A stretch of 64,000 bases of DNA from Minisyncoccota bacterium (lineage in GTDB: Bacteria; Patescibacteriota; Minisyncoccia; JAHISW01; Tagabacteraceae), in the NCBI GenBank assembly GCA_028711505.1, contig JAQTSC010000001.1:56447-120446 (forward strand). Reading direction: 5' to 3'. Each line of letters begins with the position of its first letter. Position 1 is the first letter of the stretch. Below, one piece after another: positions 4,505 through 48,558 of this stretch. Made by a program: the position numbers and the translations under genes. The notes below the pieces were generated by a model that was not told the origin of the DNA, did not search any database, and was given only the letters and a program-made list of their open reading frames with translations.

Positions 4505-5962
4505 ATGAAAAAAATAATATTAAAAACAATAGTGCTATCTGTCGTCGCTTTAACAACGGTTGCCATGTTTTCGCCCGGTGCTTTTGCTGCGACTTTTAAC
4601 ACCGACCCTGCCGATTATCAAACCTTAAGAGTCGGCAATGTCACCAAACAGCCCGGGACTACAAGTTCTGGCTGGGGTACTTCTATTACCGCTACTCCCG
4701 GCGACATAATCGCAGTGGCTGTTTATTATCACAATACTTCTTTGGAAACGGCAAAAGACGTGAGGGTAAAAATTACTCCCAAAAATGACGCGGAAGGAAT
4801 AAACCATGTAATTCGCGCGGAGGTATGGTCTGAAAATACCCCGATAGCTTCGGGAAGCGTTAGCATTTCTTTGTCGGAACCTCGCTCTCTTGACTATATC
4901 GAAGGTTCTGCTACTTGGAGGCCGAACCAGACTACTTACGGTTCTTCGGAGTTTCCTTTTGGTCAGGAAAAATATCATATCTTTACTACGAGCGGAATAA
5001 GAATCGGCGATATAGCCCCGGGGTGGTCCAGCCAAGGAAATGTGGTCGTTTCTTTTAAAGTGAATGAAAACGGGGGTTCGGTTTCGGGCTCAAAATTTTT
5101 ATCTGTCGTGTCTTTGTCCCCGGATTCTGTCGGGCTTTATGACGCGACATTGAAAGGTTCTGTCGCTTCAAATGATACCGTTTCTGTTTCAACTTGGTTT
5201 GAATGGGGAACATCAGTCGCGCTTGGCAATAAAACCGGCGTAAAAGCTGTTTCTTTGCCGAATCGCTCTTCTTCTTTTACCGGTTACGTTTCCGGTCTTT
5301 TGCCAAACACTCTTTATTACTATCGCGCAGTCGCGAGTTCGGCTTCTGCCACAAATTATGGGCAGATATTGAGTTTTAAAACCGGATCCGGCGCCGCTAC
5401 CGCTGTTGGGAAAGAAATTTCTGTCGTAAAATCCGTTGAAAACATTACGTCTCCGAACGGAACGCAAGACGAAGTTTCGGCTTTAAGGGGCGATGTTTTA
5501 AGATTTACCTTTACTTTAAAAAATAACGGAAGCGAAACTTTGAAAAACATCGAAGTAAGAGATTTGGTCTCCGAATATCTTAAATTGGTAAGCAATGATA
5601 GCGGAAATACGGATTGCGGAATTCAGAAAAAAGTCGTCTGGAAAATAGGAGAATTGAATGCGGGAGACGAAAAGAAAATTTCTCTTGATACCGTTGTTTG
5701 TTCCGAGGCTCCCTATGATGAATCCATAAAAAATGGCGGGGATACTGCCGTTGTCGAAGCTGACGGAATATTGCGTTCTTCAAACGAAACTTTTGTGAAG
5801 GTTTTTGAAGAAAGAAATTTCGGAGCCATCGGCGCGATTGCCGGACTTGGTTTTTCTTTTTCCAAATGGGCGTTGGTTTTCGGAATGCTGGTTTTGATTC
5901 TGGCGATATTTTATTGCGCGTCCAGGTTTTTAAAGGAAAGAAATTTTCAATCCGTAAAATAA
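4505..5962 (+). CDS. Cell-surface protein: signal peptide, Fn3-like and DUF11-like repeat domains, C-terminal hydrophobic anchor
   Basis: Start taken at the MKKIILKTIVLSVVALTTVAMFSPGAFA signal peptide (ATG 4505). Mid-region TLYYYRAVASSASATNYGQILSFKT is Fn3-like. VRDLVSEYLKLVSNDSGNTDC... resembles the conserved DUF11 repeat. The C-terminus is a hydrophobic anchor followed by positive residues (ALVFGMLVLILAIFYCASRFLKER). Confidence 0.6.
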   Translation: MKKIILKTIVLSVVALTTVAMFSPGAFAATFNTDPADYQTLRVGNVTKQPGTTSSGWGTSITATPGDIIAVAVYYHNTSLETAKDVRVKITPKNDAEGINHVIRAEVWSENTPIASGSVSISLSEPRSLDYIEGSATWRPNQTTYGSSEFPFGQEKYHIFTTSGIRIGDIAPGWSSQGNVVVSFKVNENGGSVSGSKFLSVVSLSPDSVGLYDATLKGSVASNDTVSVSTWFEWGTSVALGNKTGVKAVSLPNRSSSFTGYVSGLLPNTLYYYRAVASSASATNYGQILSFKTGSGAATAVGKEISVVKSVENITSPNGTQDEVSALRGDVLRFTFTLKNNGSETLKNIEVRDLVSEYLKLVSNDSGNTDCGIQKKVVWKIGELNAGDEKKISLDTVVCSEAPYDESIKNGGDTAVVEADGILRSSNETFVKVFEERNFGAIGAIAGLGFSFSKWALVFGMLVLILAIFYCASRFLKERNFQSVK

Positions 5963-5997: not shown

Positions 5998-6036
5998 GCC
6001 CGCCGCCGTTTAAACGGCGGCGGACTTTTGTTTTTG
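5998..6036 (+). terminator. Rho-independent terminator
   Basis: GCCCGCCGCCG-TTTAAA-CGGCGGCGG stem followed by TTTTGTTTTT. Confidence 0.8.
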
Positions 6037-9306: not shown

Positions 9307-11124
9307 TTAAAACTTATACACGTCTATTGATGTCCCCGCGCGGAAGACCGGAGTTTTTCCCAGTAGCCACGGATAAGTATCTTCAAATTTTTGTTTGAAA
9401 TTTTTTACCGGTACTGCGTGTCCTCCCTGCAGAAATGTGTGCGAAATGGCGAACCAGCTGCCCTCAGAAGGTTCTCCTTTTGCCGACCACCACTGCTCGT
9501 ACCTTTCACCAAAATAATATTTTGGATTTCCTCCGCCGAAATAATCAATTCCTATTTTTTTTATTTGGTTTTTGTCGGCAAAATCCTTGAGCCGTTTTAA
9601 ATCCTGCCCCCAATCGTAATTTGAGTCAACGGCGATTTTATAGCCGTTTTCCGTTCCGCCCCCCAAGATGTTGAAATAAGAAAGATAATAAGGATAAGTT
9701 GCTATCGCGGAAATAATCATCCAAAGAAGCAGTATTAGCAGCAAAGCGCCCCTTTCAACCGGCCTTAAATACTTCATAAAAAATTCTTTTATCTTTTCTT
9801 TAAAACTTCTCGGTTCCGAAAACGGCGGCGATTTTATCCATTTTATGGTTTGTCTCGCGACCAAAAGATAAATGAAGGGGAAGGTCGGAAGCACGTGCCT
9901 TACTCCTATGTTAAGAGGGCTTGATATTGCTTGAAACCAATAAACCGCGATAAATATAAAACTTGCCGTAAGCGCGAAATTTTCTCTAAGCCATGCGCAT
10001 GTTTTTTTGAAACTTTTATTTTTGCTTAAGATGATGTTTTTCAACCCAATTGCCATGGCCAAAAGAGTTAAAATGTGCAGAACAAGGTGTTCTTTAAAAA
10101 GATATAGCAAAGGAAAATATGAAGGCCACCCCGCCGCTGAAACTTCACCCATAAAATAAGTGGTGTTTCCTCCGGATGCTCGCTGAACAACCATAAGAAG
10201 ACCGACAAAATATTGGCCGATAGACCTGAATATCGGATTTCCGCACATCCAGACAGCGGCATCCACAAGCGGCCTTATCCCGAAGGAAGAGAGGTTAAAA
10301 ACGGCGTCACTTACTTGCCGTTCTATCGGATAATTCCAAACGTGAAAAACATAAACCGGCCATATCACAAAAAGTCCGATGATTCCTATCAAAATAGTTT
10401 TCGCGATAACGGACAGCTCTTCTTTCAAGAATTTTTTCCAATAAAAATTGTCTATGTTTTTTAAAAATACCCATGACACTCCGAAGACGGCGTATAGCGG
10501 CGCGAGAAGCACAAGCGAGAATTTTAAAAGCTGGGCAACTCCGAATGCCGCGCCCGCGATAATCAGGCTTTTTTTGTCTCCGCGGAAAAGGAAATTGAGA
10601 TAAGCGCTTATTCCTATGAAAAAACCAAAGGCCGCGCCAAGGTCAGTGGTAACATAGCGCGAGTGCGCCAGAAATGTCGGTGAAAAGCAGAAAAAGAAAA
10701 GGGCAAGAAGCGCCACTCTGTTTCCGTAAAGTCCTTGTATCAATTTGAAAAAAAGCCAGCCGAAAAGAACCGCGAGAATCATTATGGGCAGCCGGGAAAA
10801 AACGATTATGTTGTCGGCATTGTTTCCCGATTCATAAATGAAAATTCTTCCCATGTCCCATTGTCCGTTTATATATTCGCTCCATGCGGCCGCGTTCGTG
10901 GGAAAATTCAAATTTAAAAATAAAAGGGGGATAGCGGAGAGGTCTTTTATCAGGGGCGGATGCTCCGGGTTCAGACGATAATCTTTTTGCGAAAGATACG
11001 AATATCCCGAAGGTATATGCGCAAGCTCGTCCATGGTGGCGGAATCGCCCAGCGCGGAAGTAAAAATAATGCCGAACATCGCGAGAAGCATTAACCCTGC
11101 CGTGAAATTCACTATTTTTTTCAT
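9307..11124 (-). CDS. Polytopic membrane glycosyltransferase, GT39/GT83 (ArnT/PMT-like) family
   Basis: 605 aa with many TM helices. The N-terminal loop motif DELAHIPSGYSYL...HPPL is typical of PMT_2/ArnT-like lipid-linked sugar transferases. Confidence 0.7.
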   Translation of the reverse strand: MKKIVNFTAGLMLLAMFGIIFTSALGDSATMDELAHIPSGYSYLSQKDYRLNPEHPPLIKDLSAIPLLFLNLNFPTNAAAWSEYINGQWDMGRIFIYESGNNADNIIVFSRLPIMILAVLFGWLFFKLIQGLYGNRVALLALFFFCFSPTFLAHSRYVTTDLGAAFGFFIGISAYLNFLFRGDKKSLIIAGAAFGVAQLLKFSLVLLAPLYAVFGVSWVFLKNIDNFYWKKFLKEELSVIAKTILIGIIGLFVIWPVYVFHVWNYPIERQVSDAVFNLSSFGIRPLVDAAVWMCGNPIFRSIGQYFVGLLMVVQRASGGNTTYFMGEVSAAGWPSYFPLLYLFKEHLVLHILTLLAMAIGLKNIILSKNKSFKKTCAWLRENFALTASFIFIAVYWFQAISSPLNIGVRHVLPTFPFIYLLVARQTIKWIKSPPFSEPRSFKEKIKEFFMKYLRPVERGALLLILLLWMIISAIATYPYYLSYFNILGGGTENGYKIAVDSNYDWGQDLKRLKDFADKNQIKKIGIDYFGGGNPKYYFGERYEQWWSAKGEPSEGSWFAISHTFLQGGHAVPVKNFKQKFEDTYPWLLGKTPVFRAGTSIDVYKF

Positions 11125-12916: not shown

Positions 12917-13318
12917 ATGGTTAATGAACCTCAGTTTGAACAAGGCATTACTCCGGAAACCGAACGGGCAAATTTGCGCGAGCGCGTTTTGTCTTCTCCC
13001 GAACAAGGCAGAGAAATCATAAAAGAATACGCCGAATTGCCGCCGGAAAAAGTTTACGCGCCGGAATACAATCTTTCGCCCGAAGAAATGGAAAAATTGG
13101 AAAGGAGGGTGATTGACGTTAATTTTGAAGAAAAAGAAAAAGTGCTTCAGGAACTTTTTAACATCGCGAGAGAAAAAGGAATTATAAACGCGGCAAAAGC
13201 CGCTTCAAAACTTCCTCCTTCGCTTCTGGATGATTTTCACGACCTTCTTGTGAGGTTTGTTCACGAAGAGCAGAATCAGGCGCAGGATGCCGGAGCTTCT
13301 CCTTCGCAAGCGGCATAA
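12917..13318 (+). CDS. Hypothetical soluble acidic protein
   Basis: 133-aa ORF immediately upstream of, and co-oriented with, the ATPase gene. No recognisable motif. Confidence 0.45.
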   Translation: MVNEPQFEQGITPETERANLRERVLSSPEQGREIIKEYAELPPEKVYAPEYNLSPEEMEKLERRVIDVNFEEKEKVLQELFNIAREKGIINAAKAASKLPPSLLDDFHDLLVRFVHEEQNQAQDAGASPSQAA

Positions 13319-27587: not shown

Positions 27588-27636
27588 TTAGAAGGAAGGG
27601 GAAAAATAATAATAAAAACTAATTTGACCCTAAACC

Positions 27637-27707
27637 TGCGGGGTCGTCTAGCGGTAGGACATCGCCCTTTGGAGGCGAGTACCTTGGTTCGAATCCAAGC
27701 CCCGCAG
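27637..27707 (+). tRNA. tRNA-Gln (anticodon TTG), CCA not encoded
   Basis: Manual cloverleaf. Acceptor TGCGGGG/CCCCGCA, D-arm GTCT..GGAC, anticodon stem TCGCC/GGCGA with loop CTTTGGA (U33, TTG, G37), T-arm CTTGG-TTCGAAT-CCAAG, discriminator G. Confidence 0.8.
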
Positions 27708-27734
27708 GTTTGCGGTCAAATTGTCGCGGGATCG

Positions 27735-27754
27735 CCTGCCTGCCGGCAGGCAGG
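27735..27754. repeat. Perfect 20-nt GC-rich palindrome CCTGCCTGCCGGCAGGCAGG
   Basis: Read directly. Sits between the tRNA-Gln and its truncated duplicate. Related copies lie at 46663-46683 and 46770-46790 inside uvrA. Confidence 0.7.
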
Positions 27755-27807
27755 TCTAGCGGTAGGACATCGCCCTTTGGAGGCGAGTATCTTGGTTCGA
27801 ATCCAAG
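27754..27807 (+). pseudogene. Truncated tRNA-Gln duplicate (D-arm to T-arm only, no acceptor stem)
   Basis: 54 nt identical, apart from one C>T, to the 27646-27699 core of the tRNA-Gln. The 5' flank (GGCAGGCAG) and 3' flank (TTCGATT) cannot pair. An 8-bp hairpin TTCGATTT...AAATCGAA follows. Confidence 0.55.
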
Positions 27808-46026: not shown

Positions 46027-48558
46027 ATGAACGATAAAATAAAAATTCATGGGGCGCGGGTGCATAACCTCAAAAATATAGATTTGGAAATACCCAAAAA
46101 TAAATTGGTGGTTTTTACCGGTGTCTCGGGAAGCGGGAAATCGTCTTTAGCTTTTGACACTATTTTTGTGGAGGGCCAGCGAAGATATATTGAATCCCTT
46201 TCTCCTTACGCGCGGCTTTTCTTGGGTCAGGCAGACAGGCCTGATGTGGACGACATAGAAGGTCTTTCTCCTGCGATTGCCATAAATCAAAAAGCTCACG
46301 GTCATAATCCTCGTTCAATAGTGGCTACTCTTACGGAAATTTATGATTATCTTCGCGTGCTTTACGCCAGAATCGGCAAAGTTTATTGTCCGGTTTGCGG
46401 CGGCCCGATAGAAAAATTATCCAGCCAAGAAATTGTTGATGAAATAATCGAAAAAGCGAACAAAGATAAATCAGGATTTATTACGATTCTCGCGCCGGTT
46501 GTGCGCGGAAGAAAAGGCGAATATTACCAAATGCTTTATGATTTTTTGGAAAAAGGATTTAGCGAAGCGAGAATTGACGGAAAAATTTATTCTCTCCATG
46601 AAAAAGTTGAGCTGTCGCGATACAAAAACCATGATATAGAAATTATTGTTGATAAGATAATGCCTGCTTTGCCGGCAGGCGGGCCGTCTGACGCTAGTCG
46701 TTTGAACGAGGCAGTTGAAGATGCTTTGGGTTTTGCTAAGGGTTTGATTATTGCCGCCTTTACTTCGGGCCTGCCTGCCGGCAAGGCAGGCGAGAAACTT
46801 TATTCCGCAAACTGGAGCTGTCCGAAAGACGGGTTTTCTTATGAAGAAATAGAGCCGCGACTTTTTTCGTTCAATAGTCCTCACGGTGCGTGCGATGCTT
46901 GCGATGGGCTTGGCAAGAAAGATTTTTTCTCGGATGAAGTTTGTCCGAAGTGCGGCGGAAAACGTTTAAAACCGGAGGCTCTTTCAATAAGAATACATGG
47001 AAAAAACATCAGCGAAGCCATAGGAATGACAATTGACGAAGCTTATGATTTTTTCGTTAATCTTGAAAGCAAATTGAATAAAAAAGAATTAACTATTTCA
47101 AAAGAGCCCCTAAAAGAAATTGTTTCCAGGCTAGGCTTTTTGATGGAAGTAGGTCTTGATTATATCACTTTAGACAGACGGGCATCATCGCTTTCGGGCG
47201 GCGAAGCGCAAAGAATACGTTTGGCTTCGCAAATCGGCTCAAAACTTTCCGGAACTTTATATGTTTTGGACGAGCCGACTATCGGGCTTCATGAACGCGA
47301 TAACGAGCGGCTTATAAAAATGCTTAAAGAACTGAAAAATGCCGGAAATACGGTTATTGTTGTTGAACATGACGAACGCACAATAAAAGAGTCGGATTAT
47401 TTGGTTGATTTAGGGCCGGGGCCCGGCGTGCATGGCGGCGAAGTTGTTGTTCACGGAGAAACGCAAAAACTTTTAAAATCAAAAACGGCAAAGGAAGAAT
47501 CTTCCACCGTGCGGTTTTTAGCCGGTGAGGATGGAATAGAAATCGGAAAACGTCGTCCAATAATTCATCAAAAAATAAGCGTAATTGGTGCCGATGCGAA
47601 CAATCTAAAAAATATAAACGTTGATGTTCCTCTTAACAAGTTTGTCGTGCTTACAGGTGTTTCCGGAAGCGGAAAATCAACATTGCTTTATGACGTTTTG
47701 TATAAAAATATTCAATATAATTTGCGCCGCCGCGATAAAAAGTTTGAAGGAGTAAACAAAATTTTAGGGCTGGAATATCTGACGAAAATAATTGAAATAA
47801 ACCAATCTCCGATAGGAAGAACTCCGCGTTCCAATTCGGCAACCTACACCGGAATGTGGGGCTATATACGAGAAATTTTCGCTCAAATGCCCGAGGCGCG
47901 CGAGAGAGGATATAAAGCGGGCAGATTTTCTTTTAATAAACCAGGGGGTCGGTGCGAAGCCTGCGAAGGTGCCGGATTTAATCTTGTTGAAATGCATTTT
48001 CTTCCGACTATTTCCGTTCAGTGCAATGTGTGTCATGGCAAAAGATTTAATCGCGAAACCTTGGAAGTGAAGTATAAAGGAAAAAATATTGCCGATGTTT
48101 TGGATATGACGGTCGAAGAAGCCGAGAAATTTTTCAGCGAGTTCTATCACATAAGCGATAAACTAAAAGTGATGAAAGAGGTGGGGCTTGGGTATATAAA
48201 ACTTGGACAACCGGCAACGACTCTTTCTGGCGGCGAAGCGCAGAGAGTAAAACTTTCAGCCGAGCTTTCGCGGCCGATGACCAGAAACGCGATCTATCTT
48301 TTAGATGAACCGTCAACCGGGTTGCACTACGATGACATCAAAATGCTCATTTCTGTTTTGCAGAAAATTGTTGATAAAGGGAATACAGTTGTTGTGATTG
48401 AGCATAATATGCACATAATAAAAACAGCGGACTACGTGATTGATTTGGGGCCCGAGGGAGGCGAAAAAGGAGGCAAGGTGGTGGCTAAAGGCACTCCTGA
48501 AGAAGTGGCGCGAAACGATAAATCGCACACGGGGAAGTATCTGAAGAAGTATTTATAA
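46027..48558 (+). CDS. uvrA: Excinuclease ABC subunit A
   Basis: Two ABC ATPase modules ([14 protein letters not shown]; [13 protein letters not shown]) and zinc fingers (CPVCGG; CDACDGLG; CEACEGAG...CNVCHGKR). 843 aa. Confidence 0.9.

Follow-up and report, generated by a model that had tools for sequence, protein, structure and literature searches.

Two in-frame insertions of a small palindromic element in the uvrA gene of a Minisyncoccota bacterium

The uvrA gene (excinuclease ABC subunit A) on a 64,000-nt stretch of a Minisyncoccota bacterium genome (assembly GCA_028711505.1, contig JAQTSC010000001.1, positions 56,447 to 120,446; hereafter the window) carries two short, GC-rich segments that were inserted in frame into its coding sequence. 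Both belong to a family of small palindromes, here termed P, whose consensus form P20 (CCTGCCTGCCGGCAGGCAGG) is a perfect 20-nt GC-rich palindrome and whose second form P21 consists of P20 with one additional central A. The family recurs with unrelated flanks, inserts without target duplication, exhibits a pattern of hairpin, tRNA and nested targets, and is filtered by reading frame within coding sequences; the two uvrA copies are located in loops of the protein. As a whole, these observations are best explained by two insertions into uvrA of the frame-neutral P21 form of a palindromic micro-element, P20, and we assign this explanation a probability of about 80%.

Two palindromic segments inserted into uvrA

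The host gene occupies positions 46027-48558 of the plus strand, as judged from the open reading frame (ORF) and protein matches, and encodes 843 amino acids. Its product shows 100% identity with a protein named [quoted passage not shown] from a metagenome-assembled genome (MAG), for which the families PF17760 and PF00005 are recorded (two ABC ATPase modules and the UvrA interaction domain), and residues 3-843 match solved UvrA structures with E = 2e-295. Insert 1 is located at 46663-46683, reads CCTGCTTTGCCGGCAGGCGGG and encodes PALPAGG (residues 213-219). It lies on the minus strand, being the reverse complement of P21 with two changes, one of which is synonymous (GCC to GCT) while the other replaces Arg by Gly. 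Insert 2, located at 46770-46790 on the plus strand, is an exact copy of P21 (CCTGCCTGCCGGCAAGGCAGG) and encodes (G)LPAGKAG (residues 248-255). The two copies are thus oppositely oriented and both in frame, and reading the window sequence confirmed the letters, coordinates and frame that the initial annotation had given for them.

A third copy, matching the P20 consensus exactly and without an assigned strand, is found at 27735-27754, where it forms an 8-bp stem with a CCGG loop. A search of the 64 kb allowing up to five mismatches revealed no copy beyond these three loci. The core octamer TGCCGGCA occurs six times in the window (1.05 expected), a degenerate 21-mer pattern matches twice compared with 0.00 matches in 100 shuffles, and the GC content of the element amounts to 80% against 42% for the window. 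The window copies are not a chance similarity. A role as terminator was rejected for the palindrome at 27735, as no T run follows it; the remaining GC palindromes of the window, for example that at 6000-6023, are ordinary terminators.

The UvrA comparison was based on an alignment of the 120 best homologs, to which the labels P0002 and following refer. The eleven closest homologs, P0002 to P0012 (71-77% identity), carry neither segment. UvrA of the closest relative has 829 amino acids, i.e., 843 minus 14, and the DNA alignment with its uvrA gene exhibits two 21-nt gaps. Removal of exactly 46663-46683 yields ...IM|PSD..., where relatives have LIPTD or VQPKD, and removal of exactly 46770-46790 yields ...TS-G-EK..., where relatives have VTGEK or VSGEE. 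Because the nearest relatives show 21-nt gaps and exact removal restores their sequence, both segments are insertions. The solved UvrA structures are gapped at both positions as well. In the nearest available relative, whose uvrA locus (L123) and dnaX-tRNA-Gln locus (L167) derive from one and the same sample, all three window copies are absent. A single composite insertion comprising both copies and the 86 nt between them was rejected, since the intervening 29 amino acids are orthologous to UvrA in all relatives.

In an AlphaFold2 model of the window UvrA (mean predicted local distance difference test score, pLDDT, of 81.5), insert 1 forms the loop joining strand 201-211 to helix 223-236 and insert 2 the turn joining strands 240-246 and 256-260. 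Within the N-terminal half, pLDDT values below 50 are restricted to residues 217-220 and 249-251, which are part of the inserts. Each insert is predicted to add seven amino acids to a surface loop. The gaps in the orthologs bear out the earlier proposal that both segments are short UvrA insertions in linkers.

The history of the two sites is more complex than a simple presence in one genome. At site 1, decayed P-like sequence exists in the distant UvrAs P0013, P0016 and P0019 and in a clade comprising P0054, P0057, P0062 and P0075. The remnants in P0013 (CCTGCCCGTTCCGCAGGCGGG, PARSAGG) and P0016 (CCTGCCCATTCCGCAGGCGGG, PAHSAGG) match insert 1 in codon position and orientation and share its AGG to GGG change, while the P0054/57/62/75 clade carries ...TCGCCAGCCGGCGGA at site 1 and GACGGCAAGGCGCC at site 2. 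In a neighbour-joining tree of UvrA, presence and absence of the inserts are patchy even among close relatives. Site 1 is thus either a recurrent hot spot or the site of an old insertion with repeated precise loss. In the latter scenario, an early member of the Paceibacteria would have acquired P21 at site 1, and perhaps at site 2, followed by many precise losses via hairpin slippage, while gene conversion from other P copies would have kept the window copies near the consensus. The shared features of the remnants, the P-like sequences at both sites in the second clade and the patchy distribution are all in agreement with such a history, and palindromes are prone to deletion. However, all eleven other sampled members of the window clade lack both inserts, which would require many independent exact losses, the window copies differ from the consensus by only 0 and 2 substitutions compared with at least 6 in the other clades, and the shared Arg to Gly change could have arisen by convergent selection on the peptide. 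An old origin of the inserts is for these reasons considered unlikely. Since the window copies are 0 and 2 substitutions away from the consensus and the eleven other clade members lack both, recurrent gain is favoured for the window inserts.

Site 2 accommodates other GC-rich inserts elsewhere, for example GEPRPKGRDG, which contains the palindrome GGGCGAGCCTCGCCC, GKPFDKAQGK and ADGPRMSASSQRGSA; such inserts are found in the relatives P0013, P0016 and others (L121:~1020-1070; L122:~10720-10760). Site 2 is a general insertion hot spot, and several micro-element families seem to seed loops in proteins of the candidate phyla radiation (CPR). The genome of P0016 also contains near-exact copies of P outside uvrA: on the 22.5-kb uvrA locus L122, one copy with one mismatch is located inside uvrC in the LPAGRQ frame (13225-13244), and another with two mismatches inside an unannotated gene of 557 amino acids (L122:2468-2487).

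A palindrome family and its fate in coding sequence

To assess the distribution of the family, one genome per species was scanned for exact matches to P20 or to P20 with one additional central base. Exact P20 or P21 with unrelated flanks was found in at least 120 species genomes, exact P21 alone in at least 120 metagenome stretches, and P in 42 viral contig stretches of IMG/VR, including six copies on a single 29.5-kb viral contig; the chance expectation is about 0.5 occurrences in 596 Gb. The motif recurs in coding and non-coding DNA, both in the window and in hundreds of other genomes, as expected for the repeated element that the initial annotation had supposed. Among the matches listed, the record titles include many classes of Patescibacteria as well as Bacteroidota, Omnitrophota, Planctomycetota, Verrucomicrobia, Elusimicrobia, Thermodesulfovibrionales, Thermodesulfobacteriota, Bdellovibrionales, Chloroflexi and Pseudomonadota, i.e., about eleven phylum-level names, of which several are secure while some MAG labels may be imprecise. 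The carriers among these matches comprise seven cultured Bacteroidota, a curated complete WWE3 genome, a single-cell genome of Omnitrophota and long-read assemblies. Cultured carriers include Winogradskyella echinorum KCTC 22026, Flagellimonas yonaguniensis 334s03, Longitalea luteola, Aquiflexum lacus and Agriterribacter humi. Twelve of the 13 21-mers listed in the genome scan share the identical extra A; therefore, P21 is a propagating sub-family and not a collection of random one-base errors.

As most of the source sequences are MAGs, a chance similarity or an assembly or adapter artefact deserves general caution. However, shuffled sequences give an expectation of 0.00, both uvrA copies are in frame and one of them is decayed, and the same 20-mer is present in isolates, a single-cell genome, long-read assemblies and curated complete genomes. 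Moreover, flanking sequences such as the two halves of a tRNA are contiguous across the insert rather than chimeric, and the sequence of P is not known from any adapter. An artefactual or accidental origin is hence extremely improbable.

Some viral contigs exhibit P-like sequences in more elaborate arrangements. A head-to-tail array of at least ten 21-nt P-like units (CCATGCCTACCGGCAGGCAGG) is located at L164:3915-4124, and a 42-nt perfect palindrome, formed by the 21-mer followed by its reverse complement, was identified on the same viral contig (L141:632-673) and on a related one (L163:2003-2044).

Within coding sequences, the two forms of the element differ markedly. P contains no stop codon in any of the six frames, because GC follows each of the two T residues that it contains. 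Sites on contigs with less than 50% GC were classified as located in long ORFs if at least 50 open codons were present on each side. P20 was found in such ORFs at 11 of 75 sites, compared with 56% of random positions, whereas P21 was found there at 58 of 104 sites, compared with 64% of random positions (Fisher p = 1e-7). The simplest reading is a near-indiscriminate insertion followed by the loss of frame-shifting copies. The few coding P20 copies are accompanied by one extra flanking base and read xLPAGRQx. Among 62 coding P21 copies, 37 read xLPAGKAG and 12 read PALPAGR, with the remaining 13 distributed over four cysteine-containing frames; the two uvrA copies use precisely the two favoured frames. 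Intron-like removal of the coding copies at the RNA level was rejected, as P20 is purged from ORFs and P21 is not. This depletion of P20 argues that coding inserts are probably translated rather than cut from the mRNA.

In-frame hosts confirmed by Pfam are FtsK, GatB, MurB, ribosomal protein S6, an ATP-dependent DNA ligase, an RfbB-like dehydratase and TrmD. In some cases, one gene has received several copies: the NAD-dependent DNA ligase LigA at L177:6731-8905 contains three family inserts and DnaX at L228:197-1996 two (PACRQGR and PALPAGR). Genes of replication and repair recur among the hosts, as reported for repetitive extragenic palindromic (REP) sequences.

The predicted folds of the copies bear on a possible function. 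P20 yields folding energies of -8.0 kcal/mol as DNA and -13.9 kcal/mol as RNA, P21 yields -11.8 kcal/mol as RNA, and the decayed copy at site 1 only -7.8 kcal/mol as RNA (z = -0.55). For the 146 nt at 46655-46800, the minimum-energy fold reaches -74.8 kcal/mol as RNA (z = -6.2) and -36.4 kcal/mol as DNA (z = -4.9), and positions 46662-46685 and 46768-46791 of the plus strand are the predicted 5' and 3' arms, respectively, of a possible long-range helix of 24 bp. Such pairing between the two uvrA copies arises because all copies of the family are mutually complementary, and the helix would thus be a consequence of family membership. It is conceivable that the copies are instead kept for a function, with the mRNA helix or the two hairpins tuning the translation or stability of uvrA, or with the loops altering the part of the protein that contacts UvrB. 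The strength of the predicted long-range helix (z = -6.2) would fit this idea, as would the reported over-representation of REP inserts in replication and repair genes (Di Nocera et al., 2013; PMC3733652) and the presence of P copies in LigA (three), DnaX (two), UvrC, FtsK and a DNA ligase. However, the nearest relatives manage without both inserts, the copy at site 1 has mostly lost its own hairpin, the model is least ordered in the inserted loops, and large multidomain proteins offer more tolerant linkers anyway. Maintenance by function therefore appears improbable.

Insertion sites in hairpins and tRNA genes

Analysis of the insertion sites revealed clean joints. In tRNA sequences, P splits the gene without target duplication, for example in GGATA|P|GAGC and TAGA|P|GC. 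Two pairs of paralogous hairpins on the viral contig L150 provide empty and filled versions of the same site: in the first pair, the empty site CCATCCTTGCGGTTTTTG|CAAGGGTGGG corresponds to the filled site CCATCCTCGCGGTTTTTG[P]CGAGGGTGGG, and in the second pair, the empty site GCCCCGTAG|GGGC corresponds to the filled site CCCGTAG[P]GGGGC. At both filled sites, P sits where the loop meets the 3' arm, again without target duplication. The contig itself (L150:500-10950, 60% GC) is packed with hairpin repeats (GGGTGCCCCATCCTTG...CAAGGGTGGGTC) whose apical loops are plain or contain either the palindrome TCCGCCGCGGCGGA or P, so that palindromes are stacked in the tips of palindromes.

A perfect inverted repeat of at least 6 bp spans the insertion point at 10.3% of 165 non-redundant sites, compared with 3.3% of controls (p = 5.5e-5). 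At 13 of 17 such sites P directly abuts a stem arm, compared with 37% of controls (p = 0.0016), and for stems of at least 7 bp this applies to nine of nine sites. Nested copies, with P inside P, were identified in L021, L048 and L152, the insertion point being CCG|G in L021 and L048, and other palindromes also occur inside P. The base adjoining the element is A in 41%, G in 28%, C in 23% and T in 9% of cases; apart from this A-rich, T-poor position, a search for flank motifs yielded none. GTAG and CGTC are found within 8 nt of the element at only 6 and 8 of 298 flanks, respectively, and P thus carries no tag.

P is often located inside short tandem repeats, mostly of heptamers such as AATTACG, TCTAAAA, AAGGTCA and GGTGAGA (e.g., L113:1780-1860; L134:8370-8440; L125:10560-10680; L127:1640-1700). 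At these sites, the same 7-14 nt are present on both sides of P, with lengths too variable for a classical target duplication.

The copy at 27735-27754 illustrates the relation of P to tRNA genes. It lies 26 nt downstream of an intact tRNA-Gln gene (UUG; 27636-27708, plus strand; ARAGORN; Rfam 61.6 bits) and interrupts a truncated second copy of this gene at 27724-27807 on the plus strand, of which Rfam recognizes 27753-27807 as tRNA (model positions 9-63, 40.3 bits). The truncated copy consists of an acceptor-like 5' part (TCGCGGGATCG, 27724-27734), P20 within the D stem, and the D arm through T arm (27755-27807). Its D-to-T-arm part is identical to the intact gene at 54 of 55 nt; the copy has no 3' acceptor strand and is not called by ARAGORN with or without P. 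Three relatives, including the nearest one, exhibit a single tRNA-Gln after dnaX, with neither a pseudo-copy nor P. The intact tRNA-Gln is bracketed by a 9-nt inverted repeat (AATTTGACC ... GGTCAAATT) that lengthens its acceptor stem.

Similar arrangements exist elsewhere. A tRNA-like match extends across the insertion junction at 7 of 283 sites, compared with 6 of 2603 controls (odds ratio 11, p = 8e-5), and manual inspection revealed at least six additional, shorter tRNA fragments with P. P mostly enters at the 3' edge of the D loop and in some cases within the anticodon stem-loop or the variable loop. With few exceptions, the P-bearing tRNA copies are truncated duplicates that adjoin an intact gene for the same tRNA, as in the window (Gln), L034 (Val), L094 (Ser), L004 (Leu), L043 and L118, which is the outcome expected from purifying selection on single-copy tRNAs. 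In the viral locus L154:2239-2330, P is present in the variable loop of a full-length, initiator-like tRNA-fMet, which at 50.2 bits still passes the Rfam threshold for tRNAs and may represent a tRNA with an acquired extra arm. L126 exhibits the same variable-loop insertion followed by a deleted T arm.

Several tRNA loci also contain small ORFs of about 80-90 amino acids coding for GIY-YIG nucleases, each of which is flanked by a displaced 5' tRNA fragment on one side and a full copy of that tRNA on the other (L043:2090-2490; L118:3660-4070; L161:470-800; also L067 and L251). This arrangement looks like that of a selfish element invading tRNA genes. P is found 19-58 nt upstream of the GIY-YIG ORF in five loci, compared with about 0.2 expected, and a GIY-YIG ORF is present within 500 nt at 8 of 308 sites, compared with 1.3% of control positions. 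As a general partner or insertion enzyme of P, GIY-YIG was nevertheless rejected: the link is real in a subset only, most GIY-YIG ORFs having no P nearby, and these ORFs are read mainly as a source of dispensable tRNA fragments. In the relative represented by L169, a GIY-YIG ORF directly follows tRNA-Gln. On the viral contig of L161, a group I intron (L161:1182-1416, Rfam 86 bits) is located ~650 nt downstream of a P-bearing tRNA fragment and its GIY-YIG ORF.

In the model proposed here, P would move as, or into, single-stranded DNA, with donor and target both folded into hairpins, and the element would be actively mobile via a single-stranded hairpin intermediate. A trans-acting enzyme or a repair pathway would insert P by blunt joining without target duplication. 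Favoured targets are single-strand-like sites, namely loop-stem junctions of existing hairpins, the D, anticodon and variable loops of tRNA genes, and the centres of other copies; otherwise P is inserted more or less anywhere. Selection would then purge the frame-shifting P20 from genes, leaving it outside genes and in disposable tRNA fragments, whereas P21, by adding seven codons, would survive in tolerant flexible protein loops, mostly in the two cysteine-free frames. The uvrA copies are most likely neutral passengers.

Several observations weigh against this model. Only 10-20% of sites are located in recognisable hairpins, and the two uvrA sites lie outside any. With about 3 copies per 64 kb in the window, P is sparser than usual for REP-like families, and a sequence shared letter for letter between phyla fits poorly with ordinary lineage-bound transposons. 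As two other UvrA clades carry decayed P-like sequence at site 1, and one of them possibly also at site 2, recent and independent acquisition may not apply to both uvrA inserts. Between near-identical genomes, P was nowhere observed to be gained or lost. When 2161 ORFs from 120 loci were all compared with one another, no recurrent neighbour family emerged, none being present in more than five loci, and the sequences between paired copies contain host genes only and no transposase. Finally, a search of the window with an approximate query sequence revealed no ORF resembling IS200 or REP-associated tyrosine transposases (RAYTs). The same approximate query identified four such ORFs in about 290 loci, flanked by unrelated palindromes, and a link of P to RAYT or IS200 is not supported. 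A search for a longer parent element bounded by half-palindromes yielded none in 1.36 Mb, only degenerate or nested copies and the tandem 21-nt array.

The absence of both a target duplication and an associated gene would also be explained if no dedicated transposase existed and host repair copied P into breaks or stalled forks by template switching or the capture of filler DNA. Breaks would then be favoured at hairpin loops, for instance through structure-specific nucleases, or at cuts made by homing endonucleases, with another P hairpin serving as donor. Insertion exactly at loop-stem junctions fits this scenario, as do the five loci in which P is located shortly upstream of a GIY-YIG ORF that invaded a tRNA gene and the short local duplications beside P-bearing tRNA fragments. 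However, repair leaves unexplained why, across a dozen phyla, the filler should be one exact 20-mer and not any local hairpin. Palindromes other than P in these loci show no amplification, and most GIY-YIG ORFs in the loci lack P in their vicinity. Repair without a dedicated enzyme is thus regarded as a rather unlikely alternative to insertion of an actively mobile element, albeit the most serious one.

Relation to known palindromic elements

Among described elements, REPs come closest. These short stem-loop repeats are mostly extragenic but are also found in frame inside genes, often those of replication and repair (Di Nocera et al., 2013; PMC3733652). A single REP unit of ~21 nt adds seven amino acids, for example GARASRP in UvrA of Opitutus terrae, double REP inserts are present in uvrA of Opitutus terrae and Thioalkalivibrio, and some REP families lie within other small palindromes (PMC3733652). 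The intragenic uvrA REPs may be regarded as the closest precedent for P, which resembles REPs as a short, GC-rich stem-loop repeat (20-40 nt in REPs; 20-21 nt in P, with three copies in 64 kb). In contrast to REPs, which carry a GTAG or CGTC tag at one end and, in the case of GTAG REPs, are linked to REPtrons and RAYTs, P is untagged and shows no such link in the loci examined with the approximate RAYT query. REP families are confined to a species or genus, whereas P, unlike every REP family described in PMC3733652, is identical across many phyla and viral contigs. P also occurs in low copy number and targets tRNA genes. The in-frame palindromes of uvrA are nevertheless a further instance of an already known phenomenon.

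The initial annotation likened the uvrA segments to Rickettsia palindromic elements (RPEs), which are selfish palindromic repeats of a reduced genome that occur in frame in housekeeping genes, where they are translated into surface-exposed segments, and also in RNA genes. RPE-1 is about 100-150 bp long and adds tens of residues, and RPEs are restricted to Rickettsia and its relatives. The comparison holds for the behaviour of the element, i.e., in-frame insertion into coding genes, as P contributes two 7-codon inserts to uvrA whose translation is suggested by the frame filter. It does not extend to membership, as P occurs in many lineages and RPE-1 is 5-7 times longer and bound to Rickettsiales. 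Short RPEs carry a CGTC tag (PMC3733652), and P is thus set apart from RPEs by its length, its hosts and the lack of a tag.

Fungal mitochondrial GC clusters, such as GC42, are GC-rich hairpins in an AT-rich genome that occur sporadically, form merging and nesting palindromes and have no transposase of their own; they are 30-50 nt long, mostly intergenic, and flanked by AG or ACT direct repeats (PMC4478555). P resembles them as a nested, sporadic, GC-rich hairpin (80% against 42% GC in the window) that is absent at the orthologous sites of relatives, and differs from them in being bacterial and viral and in lacking a flanking AG or ACT duplication. An assignment to miniature inverted-repeat transposable elements was excluded, since P has neither a target-site duplication nor an internal segment.

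Hairpins are also recognized by larger elements. The insertion sequences IS1397 and ISKpn1 enter REP loops, class C group II introns insert after the stem-loops of terminators, and IS200/IS605 elements transpose via a single-stranded hairpin intermediate without target duplication. Like P, the hairpin-targeting insertion sequences and introns prefer stem-loop DNA; they are, however, kilobases in length and encode their own enzyme, whereas P has no coding capacity of its own, and the surroundings of its copies revealed no enzyme of this kind.

Full-text literature searches across 8 million papers returned nothing relevant for CCTGCCGGCAGG, CTGCCGGCAGGCAGG or the peptides LPAGRQ and LPAGKAG, keyword searches gave analogues only, and Rfam yielded no family for the palindrome but only tRNA and partial tRNA matches. 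The features for which no description was found are the exact 20-mer across phyla and viral contigs, the combined targeting of hairpin junctions and tRNA loops, and the 21-nt sub-family suited to coding sequence. Tentatively, and at slightly less than even odds, P20/P21 may constitute an undescribed pan-bacterial micro-element that is letter-perfect across about a dozen phyla and their viruses, inserts without target duplication at loop-stem junctions of DNA hairpins, tRNA-gene loops and its own centre among them, and seeds 7-amino-acid loops in housekeeping proteins. If so, this would imply a widespread, unrecognised activity that inserts single-stranded DNA, or a cross-phylum vector, specifying the exact sequence of P. 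REPs, RPEs and GC clusters are normally private to a lineage and their mode of spread is largely unsolved, whereas the writer of P would have to be shared or transferable across phyla. The filled and empty sites, the 20- and 21-nt forms with different coding fates, and the defined tRNA-loop and hairpin targets provide natural experiments, and the insertion rules, and eventually the enzyme, would be directly testable, including in the cultured Bacteroidota carriers. For the streamlined CPR genomes, P represents a concrete route to additional surface loops in essential proteins and to disrupted tRNA copies. Genome annotation should take into account that LPAGRQ, LPAGKAG and PALPAGR peptides and split tRNA genes are scars of the element rather than family features.

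Two further features of the window concern uvrA and its palindromes less directly. The window UvrA lacks, around residues 298-329, ~85 residues that are present in solved UvrAs (chain residues 334-420), which probably correspond to the DNA-binding “insertion domain”; the same deficit is found in CPR relatives of UvrA with about 830-850 amino acids. At 6000-6023, just past an ORF ending at 5962, a perfect 24-nt palindrome (CCGCCGCCGTTTAAACGGCGGCGG) precedes a T-rich run and represents an ordinary intrinsic terminator, unrelated to the P family.

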